Shown here: positions 28,869-60,964 of the stretch, in pieces
How positions within the stretch are numbered: position 1 is the stretch's first letter
Layout: the number at the start of each line of letters is the position of its first letter
Sequence record: OL960581
Source: Escherichia phage vB_EcoM_SA20RB
Reading direction: 5' to 3' (one strand)
Length of the DNA stretch: 64,000 bases
The notes under the pieces: generated by a model
Database searches by the model: none
Told to the model about the DNA's origin: nothing
What the model saw: only the letters and a program-made list of their open reading frames with translations
Made by a program: the position numbers and the translations under genes

Positions 28869-28869
<1 letters not shown>
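28672..28869 (-). CDS. hypothetical protein
   Basis: 65-aa ORF. Confidence 0.5.
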
Positions 28870-30072
<1,203 letters not shown>

Positions 30073-31507: not shown

Positions 31508-33095
<1,588 letters not shown>

Positions 33096-59849: not shown

Positions 59850-59986
59850 AAATTTACCATACTAGTGAATGTAGTGCCATAATAACATCAGAAATGAAAA
59901 GCACGACTTGAATTAATCCGAACATTACTCCATAATATAGTGCTACTAATAAAGTAGCAAGGGCTAATGAATAGCCCAAGATTTTC

Positions 59987-60145
59987 TTAATCATTAGTAG
60001 ATAACAACACAAATGTTAAATATGCACACATACCCTGGGCTAAAGCTTGCGAAAACACGCTGCTGGCATCAATACAGATAGTTAAAACACATGCTACTAT
60101 CCAACAAATAAATGAAATAACTCCTAATAATTTTGCGATATTCAT
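59987..60145 (-). CDS. small membrane protein, possibly Ac (acriflavine-sensitivity protein)
   Basis: 51-aa hydrophobic ORF read by hand (MNIAKLLGVISFICWIVACVLTICIDASSVFSQALAQGMCAYLTFVLLSTND); strong SD GAGGAAAA; sits between stp and 52; the ac identity is from recalled T4 gene order only. Confidence 0.5.
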   Translation of the reverse strand: MNIAKLLGVISFICWIVACVLTICIDASSVFSQALAQGMCAYLTFVLLSTND

Positions 60146-60155
60146 ATTTTCCTCA

Positions 60156-60233
60156 CTAGCGTCCGAAGATGCCTTTAGTTTTAAGATTGTTACGATAGAA
60201 CTGCATTACATGTTCGTTATGAAAATTACTCAT
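60156..60233 (-). CDS. stp: Stp peptide (suppressor of pseT; modulator of the host PrrC anticodon nuclease)
   Basis: 25-aa [28 protein letters not shown], matching T4 Stp as recalled (26 aa); ATG overlaps the ndd stop. Confidence 0.8.
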
Positions 60234-60688
60234 TAGTATGCCTGCAAAACAAATTTAAAGTTATCAGCCAACATACGGTTCATTTCTTCAAGTGTTTGAT
60301 ACTCAGAATGATGATTACGAGTAAACGCCAAAGCTAACTGACCTTTTCCAAATCCCGTCGTCAGAGGTTTCATCTTAGAAGCAGGTAGATAAAATACCGT
60401 GTATGGAACATTGTTATTTGCAATAGTACGCGCGAGCTGAGACCGACGTTGACGAATATGACTTAGAACTGCACTAAATCCTTGCTTAGAACGCTGATTA
60501 CCTACATAAAATCGCGCAGATACGCACGGACTATCAAATGGACCACCAAATTTGCTCACTAAAAAGTAAAATCCAGGGTTAGATAAAATGTCTTTATGCG
60601 GAGTTCCAAAAACCCATTCACCGCCCTTGATTGTACCAATAACAGTTGCGCCTGCATTATTCAGATCAGTAACAGTCATGTATTTCAT
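60233..60688 (-). CDS. ndd: nucleoid disruption protein Ndd
   Basis: 151 aa from MKYMTVTDL, preceded by SD GAGGAAA; the ORF track extends 16 codons upstream. Confidence 0.85.
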
Positions 60689-60748
60689 ATTGATTTCCTC
60701 TAAATTATTTTCTACTCCAAGGCCGCATGAATACACACGGCCAATAAA

Positions 60749-60964
60749 TTAATCGTCGCAGTCGACGCTCAATTCCCAGAACTCTTCTACGGTATAAGTT
60801 TCAGTATCATTTTCAATACAGAAACGTTCATTACTGTTATTTGCTAAAGTAGCGTTAACTGTCATTTTCTCGCTAGTGCTCTTAAGAGGAGAAATACGAA
60901 TTAACTGATCACCATTATCTAAACAGAAAATTTCACCAACTTTTACATCTTTAAAAATTTTCAT
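60749..60964 (-). CDS. hypothetical protein
   Basis: 71-aa ORF. Confidence 0.5.
   Translation of the reverse strand: MKIFKDVKVGEIFCLDNGDQLIRISPLKSTSEKMTVNATLANNSNERFCIENDTETYTVEEFWELSVDCDD

Follow-up and report, generated by a model that had tools for sequence, protein, structure and literature searches.

Among known phage systems, the closest counterpart of the locus described here is the stp gene of bacteriophage T4, the product of which has been defined both genetically and biochemically (PMC3014915). T4 Stp binds the type IC complexes EcoprrI and EcoR124I, whereby restriction is blocked and modification is not (Penner et al. 1995, cited in PMC3014915). Classic stp suppressor mutants arise under prr selection, and their loss-of-function mutations cluster at residues 4-14, while removal of eight C-terminal codons lowers both Stp activities only moderately (PMC3014915). 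Transferred by analogy to the phage analyzed here, the peptide would be made early in infection and would bind type IC restriction-modification complexes (EcoprrI, EcoR124I), so that restriction of DNA would be blocked and modification spared. Where, in rare hosts, EcoprrI has PrrC docked on it, the same binding would unmask this latent anticodon nuclease, and tRNA-Lys would then be cut on the 5' side of its wobble base. The cut ends would be healed by PseT and resealed by Rnl1. An earlier reading of the sequence, hereafter the first-pass annotation, had proposed this chain in outline, i.e. inhibition of EcoprrI by Stp and activation of PrrC, against which polynucleotide kinase and RNA ligase 1 act, in agreement with PMC3014915. 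A PDB sequence search with Stp found no structure, and the literature yielded no cryo-EM study of a complex containing Stp.

The window, by which we mean the whole 64,000-nucleotide stretch of DNA that was analyzed, derives from a Tequatrovirus and shows 94-96% identity over 24 kb to REP4, NR1, G50 and others. Its features of interest are collected in Table 1. Judged from its sequence, the 25-codon ORF listed there is almost certainly the stp gene of this T4-like phage. The translated peptide matched the Pfam family PF08133 (Anticodon nuclease activator family; Nuclease_act) with 71.1 bits (E 4.5e-20), for a family cut-off of 25 bits, and residues 1-25 were aligned to profile positions 1-25 out of 26. 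It was also matched by phrog_6763, annotated as 'activator of host PrrC lysyl-tRNA endonuclease' (E 1.9e-20). In the T4 reference genome (NC_000866), stp is found at 165505-165585 and encodes 26 amino acids (NP_049878). Stp of T4 and of the window share 24 out of 25 residues, with residues 1-18 being identical, and alignment with T4 stp hence upheld the match proposed in the first-pass annotation. Two coding changes separate the two genes, namely GTC to ATC (V22I) and CAG to TAG (Q26 to amber), and the DNA alignment contains three synonymous changes besides these. The T4 ending given in the first-pass annotation, GVFGRQ in a peptide of 26 residues, was right according to NC_000866, and so was the observation that the C-terminus in the window, with its 25 residues, is different. 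Furthermore, the window shares its local gene order, ndd.1-ndd-stp-ac-52.1-gene 52, with T4, RB27 and T2. Taken together, the profile score, the identity of residues 1-18 and the conserved gene order support orthology between the peptide and T4 Stp. From T4 the gene is already known, and the observation is correct and ordinary.

Table 1. Positions of stp, its neighbors and the tRNA-repair genes in the window.
Feature	Position	Strand	Product or composition	Evidence
stp (predicted)	60156..60233	minus	25 codons plus TAG stop, ATG start	translation; PF08133, phrog_6763; 24/25 residues as in T4 Stp
C(UUCG)G hairpin remnant	60157..60172	minus	GGCAUC-UUCG-GACGCU, with A.C mismatch and G.U pair	
ndd	60233..60688	minus	nucleoid disruption protein, 151 aa	PF06591, E 6.4e-89; 144/151 residues as in T4 Ndd
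ac	59987..60145	minus	acridine resistance membrane protein, 52 aa	phrog_2501; position of T4 ac
pseT	28869..29774	minus	polynucleotide 5'-kinase / 3'-phosphatase, 301 aa	phrog_505, E 2.4e-125; PF25109 and PF13671
rnlA (gene 63)	31508..32632	minus	RNA ligase 1, 374 aa	phrog_562, E 2e-157; PF09511 and PF20819

On the minus strand, stp opens with ATG AGT AAT TTT and closes with GGC ATC TTC GGA CGC TAG. The overlap with the ndd stop that had been reported for the gene is indeed present: the strand reads GCA TAC TAA TG AGT across the junction, and the final A of the ndd TAA serves as the A of the stp ATG. Both this one-base TAATG overlap and the placement between ndd and ac are the same in T4. At the other end, the stp TAG directly abuts a TGA, within which GAGGAAAATATG begins, a sequence comprising the ribosome-binding site of ac and its start. 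The overlap of ndd and stp suggests translational coupling, and since the Shine-Dalgarno match upstream of stp is weak (GCAGGC), translation of stp probably depends on coupling to ndd. Near stp, the promoter scan gave 10 hits where 7.2 were expected, which does not exceed background. The length of the ORF is in itself no proof of a gene, as a listing with a minimum of 20 amino acids returned 46 ORFs in the same 3.5 kb around stp.

It could then be argued that the ORF goes untranslated, that the ndd-ac interval acts as an RNA spacer or stability element, and that the similarity to Stp is plain nucleotide conservation. The stp region of relatives does partly encode an RNA hairpin (see below), and with the window being about 96% identical to known phages, conservation within Tequatrovirus alone is uninformative on this point. 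Codons 1-18 of homologues were compared with those of the window. Synonymous and non-synonymous differences numbered, respectively, 3 and 0 in T4, 2 and 0 in T2, 2 and 0 in JS10, 6 and 1 in the Kagunavirus Ro145clw, 6 and 3 in SP18, and 7 and 4 in the Nouzillyvirus XT34, all of these counts being biased by the selection of homologues on protein similarity. Codons 19-25 vary much more in the same phages. The predominance of synonymous changes in the N-terminal codons across lineages is the pattern expected of a translated, constrained peptide, and it extends to Kagunavirus and Drexlerviridae, where a Stp-like peptide is equipped with an ATG, a stop and a ribosome-binding site of its own despite unrelated flanks. 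As the stp product of T4 is, in addition, established by genetics and biochemistry (PMC3014915), an untranslated spacer has next to no probability in our estimation. From the conservation and the coupling, we instead infer that the stp ORF is translated.

By tblastn, Stp-like micro-ORFs were detected outside Tevenvirinae in Kagunavirus, Nouzillyvirus, Veterinaerplatzvirus, Henuseptimavirus, Deseoctovirus, Skatevirus and Webervirus, and most of them are unannotated. Siphoviruses in which such ORFs were found here are Ro145clw, XT34, Henu7, S192 and seszw. The coordinates of the Stp-like ORFs in the retrieved loci are L018:2501-2578, L019:1975-2052, L023:583-675, L024:601-681, L025:601-684, L026:601-684 and L027:526-684. 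What the siphovirus peptides have in common with T4 Stp is the core HNEH[VI]MQ[FWL]YR..[LI]K. They differ from the window in that their tails are diverged and neither ndd nor ac is found nearby; the flanks are unrelated, and each ORF has its own ATG, stop and GGAG-type ribosome-binding site. In Drexlerviridae, the Stp-like peptide co-occurs with polynucleotide kinase, e.g. in Henu7, where the ORF is situated about 480 nt upstream of the kinase gene. The Stevie genome announcement (PMC4319613) describes a T4 Stp-like peptide together with polynucleotide kinase in TLS and Stevie, both T1-like phages, and the idea that the siphovirus ORFs constitute a new observation was consequently rejected in part. 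They are an extension of known facts and not a discovery. A literature search joining Kagunavirus with Stp found no paper mentioning Kagunavirus. Another family, phrog_28068 ('unknown function'), matched the window peptide with an E-value of 7.9e-5 and may be the PHROG of the siphovirus Stp-like peptides. A single divergent case was encountered in IMG/VR, where a short contig of siphovirus type (3300023038_000081, L011:226-375) carries a Stp-like ORF that lacks a stop and continues in frame into the downstream ORF. This is either a fusion or an artefact of assembly or frameshift.

The variation within stp itself is concentrated in the tail. Residues 1-18 are the same in the window, T4, T2, RB27 and JS10, and comparison of the predicted peptides indicates that this part is fixed while the tail is free to vary. 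T2 Stp (AYD82853), for example, agrees with the window in residues 1-18 and in position, but has an unrelated tail, NFGILGFKK, giving a peptide of 27 amino acids, and has no hairpin. SP18 Stp ends in GVFGRP. In Dhakavirus (JS10 and the JS98 group), Stp consists of 25 residues, ending in GVFGR followed by a stop, with the same ndd overlap and the same downstream ribosome-binding site as in the window. It differs from the window in having V at position 22, TAA instead of TAG as its stop, and a hairpin that is kept with a G.U pair. In JS10, the 25-codon ORF is annotated as stp (ACL78482).

In order to trace the amber allele, GenBank was queried with 40 nt of the window, with each 28-mer seed spanning the TAG. 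The amber codon at position 26 was thereby found in nine records, i.e. GEP001, EC121 (two records), UFV05, UFV06, UFV09, UFV10, UFV11 and KIT06. A TAA version of the query was found in 58 records, largely of the JS98/JS10/QL01 group (Dhakavirus). Two of the amber records were translated: GEP001 encodes the identical peptide, and UFV09 ends with GVFGR-TAG-TGA. Escherichia phage GEP001 thus has the same 25-residue Stp and also the same TAG-TGA ending as the window, and EC121 is identical across the 40 nt around the stp stop. The flanking DNA of GEP001 and EC121 is only about 97% identical to that of the window, which places the allele in a mosaic background in different phages. Degenerate DNA patterns run on IMG/VR returned 13 and then 16 loci, a sample that reveals variants and is too small for frequencies, and these gave the same allele picture as GenBank. 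A sequencing error as the origin of the amber codon was rejected, because independent isolates share it.

The first-pass annotation had implied some significance in the difference between 25 and 26 residues. This has to be toned down, because the shorter form is a recurrent natural allele and the change lies in a part that is reportedly dispensable. The V22I substitution and the loss of Q26 are real but trivial, and the C-terminal difference is a common allele, probably a neutral one. Since both changes fall within the variable and largely dispensable tail, the 25-residue I22 allele would be expected, by analogy with the T4 mutants, to work like T4 Stp.

Codons 21-26 of stp also coincide with an RNA structure. 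The T4-type hairpin, GGCGUC-UUCG-GACGCC, is made up of a six-pair stem and a UUCG tetraloop and is encoded by GGC GUC UUC GGA CGC CAG (L029:1506-1525 in T4). In T4 and RB27 its folding energy is -11.5 kcal/mol, with z-scores of about -2.8 to -3.0. The hairpin adjoins the ac ribosome-binding site on its 5' side. Tuerk and colleagues reportedly found in 1988 that C(UUCG)G hairpins have exceptional stability and occur often in T4 RNA. Both coding substitutions that separate the window from T4 are situated in the stem. The G to A change underlying V22I produces the A.C mismatch and breaks the stem, and the stem-loop is missing from the MFE structure of the window. N2, which carries the same G to A change, has a weakened hairpin. 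In JS10 and UFV09, on the other hand, the stem is kept, as the stop-creating C to U merely converts a G-C pair to G.U. SP18 keeps the hairpin with the loop UUUG, and it is missing in T2 and Kagunavirus. On the plus strand at 60159-60172, the reverse complement of the palindrome is followed by CTTTAGTTTT, a configuration that was flagged as terminator-like and lies antisense to stp. Several GenBank records of T4-like phages annotate a 'terminator' at the position of the palindrome.

The hairpin may represent an RNA element that is constrained jointly with the Stp C-terminus, and where the predicted stem is lost through the G to A change, the stability of the transcript or the expression of stp and ac could be affected. 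That the I22/amber-26 allele, as found in GEP001 and EC121, is functionally distinct and not neutral, through loss of the hairpin that most Tevenvirinae retain together with trimming of the peptide, is nevertheless very unlikely. Were it true, the allele could tune the anti-restriction benefit against the triggering of PrrC, by way of stp/ac transcript stability or Stp dosage.

The same sequence changes might also be taken as signs of decay, the nonsense codon at position 26, V22I and the loss of the hairpin reducing or abolishing the function of stp, e.g. so that triggering of PrrC is avoided. Suppressor mutants of stp are after all known under prr selection (PMC3014915). The nine records from the 40-nt search make amber-26 a minority among those of Tequatrovirus, and in a 73-nt search 181 records matched, of which GEP001 alone was identical over the whole length. 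Moreover, the hairpin that is lost in the window is retained by T4, JS10, SP18 and UFV09. Yet the peptide loses nothing but its last residue, where a deletion of eight C-terminal codons keeps most of the activity (PMC3014915), and the loss-of-function sites at residues 4-14 are unaltered. A Stp of 25 residues is the norm in Dhakavirus, and the amber-26 allele is fixed in several independent isolates. There is also no pressure toward loss of stp, because pseT and rnlA are intact. All considered, we hold attenuation of the gene to be most improbable, and a working Stp with an ordinary variable tail remains the preferred reading.

Both tRNA-repair genes were present where the first-pass annotation had placed them. 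PseT is identical to its T4 counterpart in 289 out of 301 positions (96%) over the full length, and it retains the P-loop GCPGSGKS as well as the HAD phosphatase DxDxT motif (FDVDGT). For Rnl1 the corresponding figure is 369 out of 374 (99%), likewise over the full length, and the nucleotidyltransferase motif I KEDG (TKEDGS) and the Rnl1-specific C-terminal domain are both retained. The genes pseT.1, pseT.2, pseT.3 and alc are found between pseT and rnlA in the T4 order, and the pair is co-carried with stp. The description of stp as occurring together with the two repair genes holds in so far as all three are located in the same genome, but they are not neighbors, the pair being 28-31 kb away from stp as in T4. 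To the extent that sequence features can tell, the phage side of the Stp-PrrC-repair circuit is intact in all its parts in the window.

A few further observations concern the annotation of the region. The ndd ORF extends upstream to a GTG 16 codons before the T4-equivalent start at 60688 (60689-60736, minus strand). Similarly, the pseT ORF has one extra in-frame ATG (MMKK...) at 29775-29777 on the minus strand, with the T4-equivalent start at 29774. Among the T4-like GenBank records that were inspected, four, i.e. N2, GEP001, UFV09 and SP18, have no CDS for stp. Small genes next to stp in GenBank records matching 59850-60750 furthermore bear automatically assigned names that are hard to believe; for example, ndd.1 or ndd.4 is called 'naphthalene 1,2-dioxygenase', and ac is called 'sugar ABC transporter permease'.

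Lastly, the circuit formed by Stp, PrrC, PseT and Rnl1 is a textbook case of a phage anti-restriction factor that has been turned into a host alarm, which in its turn is answered by tRNA repair on the part of the phage. The window represents a T4-like phage with a full and intact phage-side set for this circuit, and the finding matters little beyond annotation. Its value in that respect is that an stp ORF of 25-26 codons lies under the cut-offs of gene callers, and that a 25-residue Stp should be treated as a normal allele and not as a pseudogene.
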